A stretch of 64,000 nt of DNA from assembly GCA_038227875.1 (NCBI GenBank), contig JBBRPR010000041.1, positions 1-64,000 of the forward strand, given 5' to 3'. A program made the position numbers and the translations under genes. The notes under the pieces are model-generated. The model had not been told where the DNA came from and searched no databases. It saw only the letters and a list, made by a program, of their open reading frames with translations. This document shows positions 18,841-38,447 of this stretch, in pieces; the first letter of the stretch is position 1; each line of letters opens with the position of its first letter. The DNA comes from Planctomycetota bacterium. Lineage in GTDB: Bacteria; Planctomycetota; SZUA-567; H5-PLA8.

Positions 18841-18922
18841 TACTTGGGATCAAATGTGATCCCAGGTGACCCCGTGACGATATCGAGTCATTTTGACCTT
18901 TGTGCCCAAAGGCACAAAGGTC
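18841..18922. repeat. Array of three ~28-bp variable-core palindromes at 27-bp period
   Basis: TACTTGGGATCAAATGTGATCCCAGGTG; GACCCCGTGACGATATCG.. (right half degenerate); GACCTTTGTGCCCAAAGGCACAAAGGTC. Confidence 0.7.
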
Positions 18923-32275: not shown

Positions 32276-33226
32276 ATGGGTGCCAATACGCTCGAAGCGC
32301 CGCAGGTGAAACTGGAAGCGGGTAAAATCGCGCACGGTGTGCCGATTGAAGTTCCCAAGCCGGCGTCGAAAGCCCAGGTCAAATCGTTCGTCGACGATGG
32401 TTTTCTGGCCGTGGAAAACCTGGTCTCCCCAGCCGAACTTGAAGAGCTCAAGGCCGACACGTTCAAGCTCGCGCGCGGCGGCTATCCCTGCGAAAGTCTC
32501 AAACCGCTGCCGGCCGACATGAGCGATGCGGACGCGCTGGCCAAGATTCTATGCATCCACCAGCCGCACTACATCAGCCCGGTGATGAAGAAGTTCGCGA
32601 TGCACGCGAAAATCTGCGGCGTGCTGAGCCAGATTACGGCCGCGCACCTGCCGCATTGGGACGGCAGCGTGAAATGCATGCAGACCATGCTCTTTGTCAA
32701 GCCGCCCCAGTTCCAGGGCCAGGCGTGGCATCAGGATGAAATCTACATTCCGACCCGCGATCGCTCGCTGATCGGCGCGTGGATCGCGATGGACGATGCC
32801 ACACTCGAAAACGGCTGCCTGTGGGTGGTCCCCGGTTCGCATCGCATGGGCTACCTCTATCCCCAGCGCGCGCACAACCGCAACGAAGAGTTCGACTTCG
32901 CGCCGGAAAGTTACGGCTTCGACGAGAACCAGCAGGTACCCGTCGTGGTCAAGGCCGGCACGGTGGTCTTCTTCAACGGCTACCTGCTCCACCGCAGCTT
33001 CAAAAACAAGACCACCGACAGCTACCGCCGCGTGCTGGTGAGCCACTACATGAACTCCTGGTCGCATCTGCCGTGGGACATCCGCGAAGGCGAACGTTCT
33101 GCGACCGCCGACCGTCGCGCGATCATTCCTGTCTCCGGCATCGACCCGTACGCGTGGAAAGGCTACGAAGACGGCGGGAAGAACGTGTGGCTGCGGACCT
33201 GCGCCGCAAACGCAGAGAAGAAGTGA
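32276..33226 (+). CDS. Phytanoyl-CoA dioxygenase (PhyH) family Fe/2OG dioxygenase
   Basis: WHQD, WIAMDDATLENGCL.VVPGSH, LLHRS. Confidence 0.9.
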   Translation: MGANTLEAPQVKLEAGKIAHGVPIEVPKPASKAQVKSFVDDGFLAVENLVSPAELEELKADTFKLARGGYPCESLKPLPADMSDADALAKILCIHQPHYISPVMKKFAMHAKICGVLSQITAAHLPHWDGSVKCMQTMLFVKPPQFQGQAWHQDEIYIPTRDRSLIGAWIAMDDATLENGCLWVVPGSHRMGYLYPQRAHNRNEEFDFAPESYGFDENQQVPVVVKAGTVVFFNGYLLHRSFKNKTTDSYRRVLVSHYMNSWSHLPWDIREGERSATADRRAIIPVSGIDPYAWKGYEDGGKNVWLRTCAANAEKK

Positions 33227-33387
33227 TTAACTGCATTGCGGATTTCGGATTGCGGATTGCGGATTAGTAGAGCGCGCAACACCGAGAGCCCAGTTGGTCC
33301 TTCCAATTGAAAACGCACGGGTTTAAAGCCCGTGCGTTTTCCATTCCAATCCGCAATCCGAAATCCGCAATCCGCAATGCTGTTAAT
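33226..33387. repeat. Inverted heptamer arrays (ATTGCGG / CCGCAAT) enclosing a REP-like hairpin
   Basis: Arms 33226-33265 and 33348-33387; inner GAAAACGCACGGG/CCCGTGCGTTTTC at 33309-33341. Confidence 0.85.
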
Positions 33388-34138
33388 GCGTTCCGTGCGA
33401 GCGTCCTCCATACCTTGCATTCGGCGCCTCTAAAATCTCCGCCTGCCGCTTCGTTAAGTCGCTGAATTTCTTCGCGTCATAATACTGCGCGTGCCAGGAG
33501 ATCGACTGCGGGCTGTATTTGTAGAATAGCGTCCGGCGTTCCCGGCTGCCGCGCCACGGAATCGTGCCGTGAGTGAGCGCTTCGGTGAAGATGATCGCTG
33601 TTCCCGCGGGACCCGGGACTGCGCGTACGCATTCGGCCGGCGTGTTCAACGAATGCCAATCTTCCGGCAGCGGATAATTGGATTTGTGACTGCCGGGCAC
33701 GCAGCCGAAGCCGCCGTCTCCGGGATTGACGTCGTGGAGATTGTAGGCGACGACCAGCAGGCCATTGTACATCCGTCCGTCGTGATGATTGAAGAACATG
33801 CACGAATCGAACGGCGTCCCGCCGCCGTGCAAGCCACTGGCGGCCACGTTCGTGCCGCTGCGAATCACGTCGCAATAGTCATGATCGAGTCGGAAGCCCT
33901 GCCCGATCAGTTCGTCGAGGTACGGTGAAATGCGTGGGTTGTCGATCAATTCCCGATACGCTTTATCCCAGGCCAGCAGCGACTCTTCGAAGCGGTGCAT
34001 TTTCGCCTCGGGCTTGGCATGCTCTGCAAGCTGGCCGTCGAGCACCCGGTTGAGCTCCTTCAATTGCCCTGCGCTCAGCGCATTCGGCACCGTGATGTAG
34101 CCCTGAAGATCGAACAGATACTTTTCCTTCTCAGTCAT
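33383..34138 (-). CDS. PhyH-family dioxygenase
   Basis: YLFDLQGY, LHGG, GGFGCVPGSHKSN, FTEALTHGT.PW, RR.LFYKYSP. Confidence 0.85.
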   Translation of the reverse strand: MTEKEKYLFDLQGYITVPNALSAGQLKELNRVLDGQLAEHAKPEAKMHRFEESLLAWDKAYRELIDNPRISPYLDELIGQGFRLDHDYCDVIRSGTNVAASGLHGGGTPFDSCMFFNHHDGRMYNGLLVVAYNLHDVNPGDGGFGCVPGSHKSNYPLPEDWHSLNTPAECVRAVPGPAGTAIIFTEALTHGTIPWRGSRERRTLFYKYSPQSISWHAQYYDAKKFSDLTKRQAEILEAPNARYGGRSHGTH

Positions 34139-34274
34139 TGGTTTGGCTCCTGGCCTGGCTCTTAGCTCTTGGGATTCCGAATCGCTCATGCCAAGCGCCC
34201 TCTGCGCTCGACATGAGGCACGATTAAACCTACCATTTGTAAGTCTCAGGTTCCTGCAAAGGGCATACAGAATC

Positions 34275-35135
34275 TTGCAAAACAGCGCGCTTCCGGACAT
34301 CGAAGTCGGCTTGGTGGAAGGGAGCCTGCACGCGTACGCCAATCCGCCCTGGGTATGGTCGGGGCCGTGGTCGTGGGAGACATGGGTGGTCGATTGGATC
34401 GCCTGGGACCGCAGCCTGCTGGCCACCTCTACCGACGGCGTGAATTTTACGCAGCACGCGCGGCCGCAATGGTCGTGGTACATTTTTCAACCGCATTGCG
34501 CTTACAAACACCTGGAGCAGGAGGCACACACCAGCGCCGAAAGTCTCTGGTTCTTCTTCAAGGTGAAGCGCAAGTTTCCGCCGCTGACCAGCCGCCCGTT
34601 CAGTGTCTGTGTCGATCCGGAAGAACGACTCTGCGGGCACGTCCGCGCCATGTACGCGCTGCAGCAGAGCGGCGATCCCGGAGCGAGGCTGATCATCCAG
34701 TCACACGCGCTGACATTCCTGACGGAGATGCTTTCCGCCGCGCAGCGGGGAGGGGCAGGGACTCCAGAAAACCCGTGGCGCATCCGCAATCCGCTCGACC
34801 GCGGCAACGCCGACGCCTCGTTGCTCAACCGCGTCGACGCCGCCGTGATGCGCCGGATCGCCGCGCCGCCGGCGATCGACGAACTGGCTGAAGCGCTGGC
34901 GATGTCCGTCTCGTCGCTCGCCCACCGCTTCAAAGCAGAAACCGGCACGACGGTGATGGAACGCGTGCGCTGGCTGCGCATCCGCGAAGCGCGCGCACTG
35001 CTGACCAAGCCCGGCGCGTCGGTGAAAGGTGTGGCGCGCAAACTCGCGTTCAGCAGCCCGTTCCATCTCTCGAAACTGTTCCACGAACACACCGGGATGA
35101 CCGCGGACGCATACATCAAACGCCATCAGCGCTGA
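34275..35135 (+). CDS. AraC-family transcriptional regulator (start uncertain)
   Basis: ELAEALAMSVSSLAHRFKAETG, VARKLAFSSPFHLSKLF..HTG. Confidence 0.85.
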   Translation: MQNSALPDIEVGLVEGSLHAYANPPWVWSGPWSWETWVVDWIAWDRSLLATSTDGVNFTQHARPQWSWYIFQPHCAYKHLEQEAHTSAESLWFFFKVKRKFPPLTSRPFSVCVDPEERLCGHVRAMYALQQSGDPGARLIIQSHALTFLTEMLSAAQRGGAGTPENPWRIRNPLDRGNADASLLNRVDAAVMRRIAAPPAIDELAEALAMSVSSLAHRFKAETGTTVMERVRWLRIREARALLTKPGASVKGVARKLAFSSPFHLSKLFHEHTGMTADAYIKRHQR

Positions 35136-35137
35136 TG

Positions 35138-35160
35138 AATTCAAAATTCAAAAGTCAAAA
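35138..35160. repeat. Heptamer tandem repeat AA(T/G)TCAA x3
   Basis: aattcaa aattcaa aagtcaa aa after the araC stop codon. Confidence 0.6.
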
Positions 35161-35182
35161 ATGCACGCGGAAGAGAGTTGCT

Positions 35183-35313
35183 GACCCTGTTGTAAATTTA
35201 CGACAGGGTCAACTTAGGATAAGGGAAATTTTCCTTATGTTGGATTTTGACCAGTGTGCCAATTGGCACGGAGGTCCCTGGCGCTGACCTCCAGGCAAAT
35301 TTGCCTGGAGGTC
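35183..35313. repeat. Array of four variable-core palindromes, three with an exact 28-bp GACC-N20-GGTC frame
   Basis: Units at 35183-35210, 35219-35238, 35249-35276 and 35286-35313. Confidence 0.8.
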
Positions 35314-35469
35314 TTCCTTGCGCGAAGACTGGGTGACCGAATACCCTGAACGCAGTAGATTCTATGCAGCTCGCCATTGAGGACCTATATGCCTCTTGCC
35401 AAAAAATACGGCATCATCACGGACATCCACGCCAACTACACGGCGCTGAAAGCGAAAGCGCGGTGATGT

Positions 35470-36183
35470 ATGCAAAAATTGCAGAAGATATCAGTTGTCA
35501 CCATCACTCCCCGCAGCCCTCGAATCGAGACTCCACCCTCTCGCTACAGTTTTTCAGACTCGAACATCTTCGGCGTAGTGGGTGCGATCTTCGCCGTGAC
35601 AGCGATCGCATTACTGATTCTCCGCAAACATGCCGCCACCTACACCGAGGCCAAATCGTTACAGGTCGCGTGTATTTTTGCCTTTCTGGTCGCGGTTGTG
35701 ACGGGGATGTGGTCTTCGTTGAAATTTGCCAATGTCGTGCTCCGCAAGCGCGCAGAGGAACGGGGGAACAGTATGAGCTGGGATATCTACATCGTAAAGT
35801 TTTCAAAGCCTTATGCCACGGTTAAGGAAATTCCAGACGAGGAGCGTTCGGAACTGGGTACGCGAGTGGCCGTTCAGAAGGCACTTTCCGAAATATTTCC
35901 GACCATCAAGTGGAGAGACGACGGTTGGGGAAGTTGTGATCACGAATACGGTTTTATCGATTTTAACGTTGGCAATGACGACCCTGTTGACAGCATGATG
36001 TTGCTCGTTCGCGCAGCCAGTGCTGATGTTGTGCCGGATATCGTGCAGCTCTGCATGAAGAATGGATGGCAGGGAATCGACACAAGCACGAGCGACGGCG
36101 GGTTTATCGAAAGGGCGCAGGATCCGGCAGCGGGACTGAAGAGGTGGAGCGACTATCGGGATCAGGTTATCGAAAAGTTTTGA
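35470..36183 (+). CDS. Hypothetical protein: 2-TM N-terminal part plus a soluble MSWDI... domain (possible internal start at 35773)
   Basis: ORF track; purine-rich RBS before ATG 35773; lower GC. Confidence 0.55.
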   Translation: MQKLQKISVVTITPRSPRIETPPSRYSFSDSNIFGVVGAIFAVTAIALLILRKHAATYTEAKSLQVACIFAFLVAVVTGMWSSLKFANVVLRKRAEERGNSMSWDIYIVKFSKPYATVKEIPDEERSELGTRVAVQKALSEIFPTIKWRDDGWGSCDHEYGFIDFNVGNDDPVDSMMLLVRAASADVVPDIVQLCMKNGWQGIDTSTSDGGFIERAQDPAAGLKRWSDYRDQVIEKF

Positions 36184-36196
36184 TACGAAAGGCGCG

Positions 36197-36502
36197 GTGA
36201 TAATGCAGACGCCTCAGAATTTTGAAAAAGCCAAAAAGAGGTCTTATGACACGTACCTTGCCGCTCAGGCTCAATATGACGCGGAACAACGCCCAAGGCG
36301 TGAGCGGCGCAAAAAGGACTCCATCGTATTCGCAGGCACGGGTCTTGGCTTTCTAGCGGTCGGGGCCTTACTCCAATTTTTGAACGGCTATGTCGTGTAC
36401 CGCGGAGCAGGTTTTAGCCCGATAGAGGTGATGAGTGTTTTCATGTTGGTGGCTTCATCGGTGTTATTCCTGTGGGCCGCCTTGAAATTTGTGCGAAGTT
36501 GA
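36197..36502 (+). CDS. Small 2-TM membrane protein
   Basis: Two hydrophobic helices; resembles the next gene. Confidence 0.6.
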   Translation: MIMQTPQNFEKAKKRSYDTYLAAQAQYDAEQRPRRERRKKDSIVFAGTGLGFLAVGALLQFLNGYVVYRGAGFSPIEVMSVFMLVASSVLFLWAALKFVRS

Positions 36503-36511
36503 CTTAAGGCC

Positions 36512-36787
36512 ATGAATCCCGACTCAAAAATCACCGATTCCAAGCCACGCGACGCCGCTCTTAACAAGCGCCGGACCGGCGACGCACTGATCTACCTCGC
36601 CGCAGCGGGGGGACTCACCGTGATTGGAATTCTCGTCGAAATCCTGCGCAGACTTGCCGTGACGGATTTCCTCGCCGACAACTCCATGGATCTGCTCTCG
36701 CCCTTTATGATGATCGTGGGCATTTTCCTGTCTATCGTCGGGCTGGTAAAACTGGTTCGCGCCGATCAGGCCAGCCGGATTCCCTGA
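36512..36787 (+). CDS. Small 2-TM membrane protein
   Basis: Two hydrophobic helices; ends KLVRA, like KFVRS in the previous gene. Confidence 0.6.
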   Translation: MNPDSKITDSKPRDAALNKRRTGDALIYLAAAGGLTVIGILVEILRRLAVTDFLADNSMDLLSPFMMIVGIFLSIVGLVKLVRADQASRIP

Positions 36788-36899
36788 CGCACTGGCATTT
36801 CCCGCCCGTTCCGCATACTATTTCCACCTACAGATTCCGCGCTACCAGGGCCCCAAGGATGAGGGTACAGACGCGGACCCATATTGGAGAGGAGCGCAC

Positions 36900-38447
36900 A
36901 TGCCAGTCCGCATCAGCAAGTTCATCAATGGTTACGTAACCCCCGAAGACGTCGGCCCCGACCTGAAAGTCCGCAAAGGTCTGCCGCCGTTCATGCTCAG
37001 CTTCACCAGCGATTACAAGCCGGTGATGACCTGGAACACCACGCGAACGTGCAACCTGCGCTGCATGCACTGCTACTCCGACAGCGAAACCAAAGCGTAC
37101 GCCAACGAACTCAACCACGAAGAAGCGATCAAGATGCTCGACGACATGGCCGAATACGGCGTGCCGATCCTGCTCTTCTCCGGCGGCGAGCCGCTGATGC
37201 GTAAACGCGTCTTCGAATTGATGGCCTACGCCCGCAAAATCGGCGTGCGGCCGACGCTCTCCACCAACGGCACGCTGATCTCCCGCCAAGTCGCGCAGAA
37301 CATGAAGAAGGCCGGCCTCGGCTACGCCGGCATCTCGATGGACGGCTACGGCGACACCAACGATAAGTTCCGCGGCAAGGTCGGCGCCTTCGAGGACATG
37401 GTTAAGGGCGTGGACAACTGCCTGGCCGAAGGTGTCAAAGTTTCGCTGCGCTTTACCGTCACGCAGCACAACGCGATGGACCTGCCGAAAGTCTTCGATT
37501 TCCTCGAACAGCGCAATCTGCCCCGCATGTGTGTCTACCATCTCGTCTATTCCGGCCGCGGCAGCGACATCGCCTCCGACGACGTGGAACGAAAGTTCAG
37601 CCGCACCGTTGTTGACCAGATCATTGACCGCGCGGAGTACTTCCACAAGAAGGGCTTCGAAAAGGATCTGCTCACGATCGACAACCATTGCGACGGCCCG
37701 TACCTGATCATCAAGCTGCGCGAACGCGGTCAGAAGAAGCTGGCCGACGACATTTACTCGCTGCTGCTCAAGCAGGGCGGCAACCGCAGCGGCATCGGAT
37801 TCGGCGACGTCGACAACCTCGGCAATGTCCACGCCGATCAGTTCAGCTGGGATTATTCCTGGGGCAACGTGAAGCAGAAGACGTTCCGCCAGATCTGGGA
37901 TAACGTCAGCGACGCCACGATCGCCGCGTACAAATACCGCCGCCCGCTGATCAAGGGCCGCTGCAGCAAGTGCCAGTTCTTCGAAATCTGCAACGGCAAC
38001 TTCCGCGCGCGCGCCCGCTACGCGACCGGCGACCTGTGGGAGAGCGATCCGGCCTGCTACCTGACCGACGCGGAAATCGGCGTCTACAAGGACGCGCAGG
38101 GCAAGTACCACAGCCACGATCCGAAGCTCGAAAACGAAGTCGAAACGCTGAAGCAGAAGGCGGAGCACTTCACCAAGCTGGGCATGAATGTCCCGCTGGC
38201 GATGGCCGCCGAAGCGACGGGCTGCCTGGCCGCGATTCCGAAGCAGGTCTCGGAAAATTACCTCGAGAAGGCCAAGACACTCGGCCCCATCGAAGCCGCG
38301 GAAGTCGCCGCCGATGAATTCACCAAGCCCGACCCCAAGCGCCTGGCCGAAGTTCAGAAGCTCAAGCCCGAAGCCTACGCTGATGCTGAAAAGGCCAAGG
38401 GCGTGAACCCGACGCTTGAAACGCTGACCGGCGCCGCCGGCGCGTGA
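36900..38447 (+). CDS. ahbC: Radical SAM/SPASM protein, AhbC/NirJ1-like (siroheme-dependent heme synthesis), with a C-terminal extension
   Basis: WNTTRTCNLRCMHCY, FSGGEPLMR, YHLVYSGRG, LTIDNHCDG, GNVHADQF, C..C.....CNGNFRARA, DPACYL. Confidence 0.8.
   Translation: MPVRISKFINGYVTPEDVGPDLKVRKGLPPFMLSFTSDYKPVMTWNTTRTCNLRCMHCYSDSETKAYANELNHEEAIKMLDDMAEYGVPILLFSGGEPLMRKRVFELMAYARKIGVRPTLSTNGTLISRQVAQNMKKAGLGYAGISMDGYGDTNDKFRGKVGAFEDMVKGVDNCLAEGVKVSLRFTVTQHNAMDLPKVFDFLEQRNLPRMCVYHLVYSGRGSDIASDDVERKFSRTVVDQIIDRAEYFHKKGFEKDLLTIDNHCDGPYLIIKLRERGQKKLADDIYSLLLKQGGNRSGIGFGDVDNLGNVHADQFSWDYSWGNVKQKTFRQIWDNVSDATIAAYKYRRPLIKGRCSKCQFFEICNGNFRARARYATGDLWESDPACYLTDAEIGVYKDAQGKYHSHDPKLENEVETLKQKAEHFTKLGMNVPLAMAAEATGCLAAIPKQVSENYLEKAKTLGPIEAAEVAADEFTKPDPKRLAEVQKLKPEAYADAEKAKGVNPTLETLTGAAGA

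Follow-up and report, generated by a model that had tools for sequence, protein, structure and literature searches.

Fixed-frame palindromes dispersed through a Planctomycetota genome share sequence with an in-gene palindrome of expanded ParB-like genes and are putative docking sites

Sequence comparison showed that several intergenic palindromes of a Planctomycetota genome (GCA_038227875.1) are exact copies of a segment of its ParB-like genes, imperfections and ~13 nt of coding flank included. We suggest that the palindrome family to which they belong probably derives from this expanded, phage-type ParB-like gene family, and that it is probably still read by the proteins which these genes encode. 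The array at 35183..35313 of the window, that is, of the whole 64,000-nucleotide stretch of DNA that was analysed, is a mosaic of four lineage-specific palindromic modules of 26-28 bp. That the dispersed copies are ParB-like docking sites is a reading that we put forward tentatively, as a possibility that falls a little short of probable. The window is contig 41 of a 176-contig assembly of 9.34 Mb, with 59.6% GC and 88% completeness.

The first-pass annotation had reported four palindromes with centres 32, 34 and 37 bp apart, all of which lie where it placed them. It gave them a common GACC-N20-GGTC frame, which fits units 1, 3 and 4 but not unit 2, framed AGG...GTT. Unit 1 (35183..35210; GACCCTGTTGTAAATTTACGACAGGGTC; GACC...GGTC) forms 13 of 14 pairs, with one T.G, and is made up of an ACC-framed 26-mer of core type CTGTCGTAAA extended by one pair. 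Unit 2 (35216..35241) is assigned to the minus strand, on which it reads AACATAAGGAAAATTTCCCTTATCCT in an AAC...CCT frame; its inner palindrome, at 35219-35238, has nine of ten pairs and one G.T. It is followed by a linker at 35242..35248, likewise assigned to the minus strand (GGATTTT, or AAAATCC on the minus strand), and then by unit 3 (35249..35276; GACCAGTGTGCCAATTGGCACGGAGGTC), which forms 11 of 14 pairs within its GACC...GGTC frame. A perfect form of unit 3, ACCAGTGTGCCAATTGGCACACTGGT, is found at C25:80473. The 3' arm of unit 3 itself is able, in addition, to base-pair with that at the 5' side of unit 4 (35286..35313; GACCTCCAGGCAAATTTGCCTGGAGGTC), a perfect 28-bp palindrome framed GACC...GGTC. 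Units 1, 3 and 4 carry no strand assignment, nor does a further family member in the window at 18895..18922. Folded as single-stranded DNA, the interval 35170-35325 forms four hairpins at -38 kcal/mol, as against a mean of -17.1 (sd 2.6) for 200 shuffles, of which 0/200 folded as well (z = -8.08).

The array begins 48 nt past the stop codon of an AraC-family regulator gene (34143..35135, plus strand; Pfam HTH_18 8e-20, HTH_AraC 6e-13), whose closest named match, from a Planctomycetota MAG, is 46% identical. To the right of the array GC falls to 0.50-0.54 over 35000-36600, in agreement with the earlier description of an array at the left edge of a lower-GC block. This block starts with an apparent detached 5' gene end (35389..35450, plus strand, reading MPLAKKYGIITDIHANY...), which may, from its DIHAN motif, be metallophosphoesterase-like. 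Because the stretch 35389-35450 is matched alone at many loci in related genomes, at 76-87% identity, it suggests a truncated gene left by rearrangement. The ORF at 35364-35825 has no Pfam family, and a scan of 33000-38000 against Rfam gave no match at the array, its sole match in that interval being a sub-threshold SorX at 33287-33341, outside the array.

The frame of these palindromes is set far apart from the rest of the genome by its counts. The genome has 298 GACC-N20-GGTC sites, whose pairing scores are bimodal (peaks at 6/14 and 12-14/14), and 71 of them score at least 11/14. When ACC-N20-GGT was searched with up to two mismatches in the ten inner pairs, 230 sites were recovered (80 perfect, 75 with one mismatch and 75 with two), while spacings of 16, 18, 22 and 24 gave 17, 16, 7 and 1, and the next-best outer triplet gave 44. 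Genome-wide there are 831 palindromes that form 11 or more of 13 pairs, 255 of them in the ACC frame, compared with 159 and 5 in one block shuffle; the comparison with shuffled sequence that had been proposed thus comes out far above chance. The first-pass phrase "fixed frame, variable self-complementary core" is right genome-wide, since the 230 units have 142 distinct cores whose free positions are nonetheless paired. That each core is different needs correcting, however: not every core is unique, and certain subfamilies are present in 5-24 copies. Half-sites follow the consensus R-ACC-Y-T-N-K-N-G-C-M-A-A, in which positions -9, -5, -4, -2 and -1 are conserved, whereas -10, -8, -7, -6 and -3 are free yet paired. 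Centres are palindromes in their own right, being AAATTT in 147 cases, CAATTG in 88, GAATTC in 27, CACGTG in 25, CAGCTG in 23 and CCATGG in 18. The half-sites of the 230 units comprise 124 distinct 7-mers, and 203/230 fall in one single-linkage cluster; they form a continuum and not a few discrete types. Altogether 437 (about 440) sites are family-like, with about 230-255 ACC...GGT-framed copies. The comparison with related genomes that had also been called for shows that the expansion is lineage-specific: the pattern ACCN7MAATTKN7GGT has 148 sites here and 0-3 in each of 19 genomes of the same order. The nearest genomes are related at the family level, with about 70% identity in coding DNA.

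The units behave much like REP/BIME elements, and the earlier statement that they are the opposite of a normal repeat family is overstated in view of this behaviour and of recent bursts of identical copies. By our own crude gene calls (6383 genes, 85% of the genome coding), 195 of the 230 ACC-framed units (~85%) are intergenic and 33 are in called genes, mostly at gene edges. Per kb of intergenic DNA there are 0.206 units in convergent regions, 0.176 in tandem regions and 0.079 in divergent regions, and in tandem regions the units lie a median of 47 nt from the upstream stop and 109 nt from the next start, so that the position of the array in the window is typical of the family. Where copies share a core, they have only the 26 bp in common: flanks are unrelated among the five copies of the unit 1 core type and among the 24 identical copies of the GACCTTTGTGCCCAAAGGCACAAAGGTC subfamily, of which 18895..18922 is one. 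There was no excess of direct repeats at the flanks over a shuffled-pair control, hence no sign of target-site duplication. The modules have thus been copied, as discrete units and with no duplication of the target, to hundreds of places, most of them intergenic. They also cluster, as 56 pairs and 8 triples mostly spaced at 31-41 bp, into mosaic arrays. Units 1-3 of the window recur as a block on contigs C60 and C10, where unit 1 shows a compensated C-G to G-C change and unit 2 two compensated pairs, G-C to A-T. Four public DNA runs yielded short contig pieces, one of which matches the paralogous array type, with no joints seen, and a metagenome search for the array locus gave one weak match. 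Among the 345 genes adjacent to units, no family stood out, the largest clusters having 15 and 11 members.

The ParB-like gene family that shares sequence with these units is itself expanded, with 17 matches in this genome versus 0-2 in each of 19 relatives, 5 of which have any. Several of the matches lie at contig ends, and since the assembly is 88% complete, readers may be missing. The PHROG "ParB-like partition protein" profile matched the family at 1e-11 to 8e-17 and NCBIfam gave a weak parB_part match, while Pfam assigned no family. An AF2 model of one such protein (mean pLDDT 68.7) had ParB/Spo0J, Noc, KorB and pNOB8 ParB as its top PDB matches (from E 5e-5, probability 1.00), and as modelled the family is a ParB N-domain joined to an HTH fold, of phage type. 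D79, G80, R81 and R83 are invariant. The genes are solitary, with ordinary neighbours (FtsK, DnaX, LigA, a PfkB kinase, a sulfatase); a mobile-element context was considered and rejected, prophage genes being absent among the neighbours. Similarity between gene copies extends over the gene and ~200 bp upstream. Viral homologues number 246.

Each assembled ParB-like paralogue has a palindrome of its own, different from the others but constant in its codon position, in the stretch that links the N-domain to the HTH. This in-gene palindrome has the centre AAT|TTG or AAT|TGG, which codes N-L/W/F, and the linker stretch (residues 148-156) is disordered in the AF2 model, with pLDDT below 50. An in-gene palindrome is found in the ParB-like genes of 3/6 relatives; also, in the relative G008, one of three family palindromes lies inside a 458-aa gene and codes D-P-S-G-N-L-R-E-G. 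Among the best 80 of the 246 viral homologues, each surveyed with 10 kb on either side, 46 have an in-gene palindrome; the arms all differ, and the centre is mostly GCAAATTTGC. Recurrence of the palindrome elsewhere within the 10 kb on either side was seen in 0/46, which indicates that dispersal is no habit of the family.

The link between the dispersed units and these gene segments is one of detailed sequence identity. Every in-gene palindrome type has 5-30 dispersed relatives within 4/26 bases. These relatives retain the asymmetries of the gene copy, as illustrated by the imperfect ACCACCGGATAAATTTATGCCGAGGT, which is present unchanged at C2 and C8, and they often retain ~13 nt of the left coding flank. 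For example, GTGGTCAAAAGCC followed by AACATGGGGACTGTAGTCCCTATCCT occurs in the contig-27 gene and in at least five intergenic places. An element of ~48 bp has 22 copies, 21 of them intergenic, mostly 40-80 nt past stop codons and in either orientation, and one of them the linker DNA of the contig-15 ParB-like gene. The window array itself takes part in this pattern. The linker at 35242..35248 is a recurrent joint, GGTC-AAAAKCC-AAC, that is also found beside many intergenic units and that inside ParB-like genes codes V-K-S-Q. Unit 2 together with this linker is a copy of the contig-11 in-gene type (minus strand VKIQHKENFPYP, V-K-I-Q-H-K-E-N-F-P-Y-P, versus VVKSQHGENFPHP in the C11 gene), and unit 4 is 4/26 bases from the palindrome inside the contig-31 ParB-like gene. 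The earlier proposal of operator-like sites tied to an HTH family gains from these results, as the units, some of them exact copies, are homologous to the palindrome inside the genes of an expanded family of ParB-fold HTH proteins. As for the proposed co-occurrence with a recombinase, HUH nuclease or HTH family, this HTH family is expanded in the same genome, and no recombinase or HUH gene flanks the units. The more specific idea of a library of specificities, with one reader for each core, is not supported: only 64/437 family-like units are within 4/26 bases of any of the nine assembled in-gene palindromes, and the cores are a continuum. A search for the cores in phage sequences, proposed at the same time, succeeded for unit 3 (3 viral loci) and unit 4 (4 loci), but not for unit 1 (0 loci), all as exact cores in viral contigs; no ParB-like match was detectable within 900 bp of the seven loci.

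The palindrome and the adjacent HTH diverge together, as judged from the gene sequences. Paralogues with 85-94% identical N-domains have linkers that are 12-64% and HTHs that are 28-60% identical. In the C33/C11 pair the N-domain is 92%, the linker 41% and the HTH 28% identical, and the similarity of C11 and C33 ends exactly at the palindrome. Across 54 genes, the distance between palindrome arms was correlated with the distance between HTHs given the N-domain distance (partial r 0.287, reached by 0/2000 permutations; reverse partial 0.154). Physical linkage in mosaic recombination could be the source of this correlation. As a separate observation, the near-identical ParB-like genes at C11:140552 and C27:91013 differ by five clustered changes in the palindrome centre (GGGGAAAATTTTCCCC versus GGGGACTGTAGTCCCC), which are largely compensated, as if the centre had been swapped as a block.

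This joint divergence indirectly supports the prediction that ParB-like proteins bind specifically, with CTP-dependent loading, at the palindromes. The in-gene palindrome may be a parS-like docking site of the protein in whose gene it lies, and if so, the ParB-like paralogues would dock or load at the dispersed copies, which would work in the form of double-stranded DNA. The positions read would be ACC/GGT at +/-11-13, T at +/-9, GC at +/-5/4 and the AATT centre. The free positions might be kept symmetric by reading as a dimer, by hairpin or cruciform extrusion, or by template-switching during replication, a process described as making quasipalindromes perfect (PMC7202029). The post-stop placement and the depletion in divergent regions speak against docking, as they are the pattern of neutral or selfish REP-like elements.

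Another explanation, doubtful but a serious contender, is that the units are purely selfish REP-like hairpins, copied by an enzyme that recognises the framed hairpin in single-stranded form. Copies with intact stems alone would then propagate, giving covarying cores, and the resemblance to the ParB-like genes would reflect the origin of the units or their invasion of a tolerant linker, with no present function. Much of the copying behaviour is consistent with this: the units are intergenic, at gene 3' ends and in either orientation; they form mosaic arrays at 31-41 bp spacing; identical copies come in bursts, without target duplications; the expansion is lineage-specific; and the cores are a continuum in which about a third (80/230) are perfect. 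REPs have been described as hairpins of 20-40 bp that are sometimes inside genes (PMC3733652), and the genome has 8 matches to the Y1 transposase family (PF01797). However, no Y1/RAYT gene is flanked by units of the family, the palindromes within 1.5 kb of these genes being all of other types, no pair of like units brackets a gene, and the GTAG/CGTC tag is absent from the units. Moreover, the centre is palindromic (AATT, ACGT, AGCT, CATG) far more often than would be expected of a free loop. The in-gene palindrome is also present in relatives and phages that lack the dispersed family, and so is not a product of invasion.

It was for the same reasons that an association of the units with RAYT was rejected: the 8 PF01797 matches are flanked by other palindromes, and no gene is bracketed. 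The Y1-transposase (RAYT-like) genes at C43:7910-8525, C24:22150-23030, C9:158185-158834 and C3:47296-47325 have different flanking palindromes of their own. Alongside the ACC...GGT family, then, the genome contains a distinct set of classical REPtron-like units.

It is conceivable, though quite unlikely, that the ParB-like genes and the palindromes together constitute one self-propagating "site plus reader" system in which the binding site is itself the mobile module. The linker of the reader genes would be the source from which the site is copied, and perhaps also a place to which it returns, and the ParB/Srx-type N-domain would possibly nick the extruded hairpin. Were this true, it would provide a growing, diversifying set of docking sites with matching HTH cassettes, and it would mean both a mobile element of a new kind and a ParB-fold protein with a new activity.

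A role in RNA, as 3'-end hairpins that stop transcription or shield mRNAs from exonucleases, is improbable. Such a role in termination or mRNA protection has been proposed for REPs, and it would suit the median of 47 nt past the upstream stop codon in tandem regions and the high stability of the hairpins. In the window, the three transition-type mismatches are all G.T on the plus strand, which is the sense strand for both flanking genes, and genome-wide the mismatches on the transcribed strand are of G.U type in 39 cases versus A.C type in 26. However, the 39:26 bias is weak, the stems have no following T-run, and ordinary A-tract/T-tract terminators exist in the genome besides (98 palindromes begin with AAAA). 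The loops are self-complementary, which is needless for an RNA function; the palindromic centres thus argue for constraint at the level of DNA rather than RNA. Furthermore, 25/230 units are in divergent regions, and some are within ParB-like coding sequence. Intrinsic terminators were rejected more directly, as T was not enriched downstream of the stems in 127 oriented units and consensus scans of 34900-35700 returned 0 promoter and 0 terminator-like sites.

That the units are recombination sites, serving the exchange of palindrome-plus-HTH cassettes or as a recombinase target like a serine-recombinase crossover site or attC, is very improbable: their 26-28 bp and A/T centre are the shape of serine-recombinase crossover sites, a family palindrome lies ~350 bp past the 3' end of a small resolvase gene in G006 and G008, and both the C11/C33 similarity that stops exactly at the palindrome and the clustered, largely compensated centre changes of C11 and C27 would fit, but none of the three serine-recombinase matches in the genome is near a unit (coordinates compared by eye), conservative recombination is unable to insert a 26-bp unit, and as attC sites the units would be too short and too perfect, nor do cassettes lie between them.

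Compared with known systems, the putative docking sites described here have a mixed character. Like REP/BIME elements, they are short hairpin units in hundreds of copies, extragenic, placed just past genes and sometimes inside them, with mosaic clusters of differing unit types and lineage-specific abundance. REP superfamilies are defined by a GTAG or CGTC tetranucleotide at one end (PMC3733652). Unlike REPs, the units have symmetric RACC/GGTY ends in place of this tag, flank no cognate RAYT, are symmetric to the centre with a fixed frame and a varying core, and share sequence with a protein-coding segment of ParB-like genes. Noc and KorB are known to have many dispersed sites. As in ParB-parS, Noc-NBS, KorB-OB and BisD-bisS, a ParB-fold HTH protein would be paired with a palindromic site, possibly within a gene; the ParB-like CTP clamp BisD of ICEclc is described as using palindromic sites of 23 bp that are located within genes (PMC12409273). 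Unlike in those systems, there are up to 17 reader-gene matches here and not one, the palindrome is in the linker codons of the reader itself, and the several hundred putative sites have continuously varying cores and were copied as units rather than evolved in place.

The first-pass annotation had also drawn an analogy with integron attC sites, imperfect elements of 57-141 bp with extrahelical bases that separate gene cassettes and depend on an integron integrase. The analogy is apt in that the units have conserved ends and a foldable structure with free inner sequence, but it goes no further, as they measure 26-28 bp, are often perfect, follow one another back to back with a spacing of 31-41 bp and are not found between cassettes. 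The dRS3/NIMEs of Neisseria, like the present units, are dispersed short repeats whose inverted ends are fixed and whose core varies, and both form intergenic mosaics. The dRS3 core, however, is not known to be self-complementary, and dRS3 is a phage insertion target with no known link to a ParB-like gene, whereas the core of the present units is self-complementary and linked to ParB-like genes. In the full-text literature we found no paper linking REP-like repeats to ParB-like in-gene sites, and no description of the ACC...GGT palindrome family in Planctomycetes.

REP-like repeats are common, but where no RAYT transposase accompanies a family, its origin and partner proteins have, to our knowledge, mostly not been established. 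In the present case the sequence of a large hairpin-repeat family leads back, base for base, to a defined coding segment, the in-gene palindrome of phage-type ParB-like proteins, whose gene family has expanded in the same genome. If these proteins bind the units, the genome would offer a natural series of several hundred site variants, together with up to 17 matches to the reader gene, for studying site choice by a ParB-type clamp; if they do not, it would be an example of a docking site that escaped and multiplied as selfish DNA. Either way, the pattern of a fixed frame with a variable core would be explained, and a widespread, uncharacterised family of phage proteins would gain a testable role.

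Several further observations concern related sites and the neighbourhood of the array. Of five canonical parS-like sites (TGTTCCACGTGGAACA or one-base variants), at C3:120032-120226, C3:42948 and C40:9841, three lie less than 200 bp apart on contig 3. A distance of 46 nt separates the site at C3:42948 from a unit of the ParB-like type of contig 15, and a near-parS on contig 4 (~94290) abuts a unit of the same type. A near-identical family palindrome, ACCCTAGCGCAAATTTGCGCTAGGGT, occurs in two other genera, at 3001-3026 of L024 (G006:C1) and at 3931-3956 of L029 (G008:C83). The G008 region also holds a large serine recombinase and a ParB-like gene, and in G006 an ORF of 109 aa that separates the resolvase gene from the palindrome matched neither a Pfam family nor anything in this genome. 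In the window, three small ORFs downstream of the array (35470-36183, 36197-36502 and 36512-36787), with no Pfam family, lie directly upstream of a radical-SAM/4Fe-4S gene (36900-38447), and the four (35470-38447) could be a peptide-modification cluster. Finally, a 7-base tandem repeat (AATCCGC/GCGGATT) forms two inverted runs, at 33226-33265 and 33341-33385, that bracket an ordinary A-tract/T-tract terminator hairpin at ~33310-33345; in most genomes of the family this ~33-bp run recurs at many sites, with 90-100% identity.
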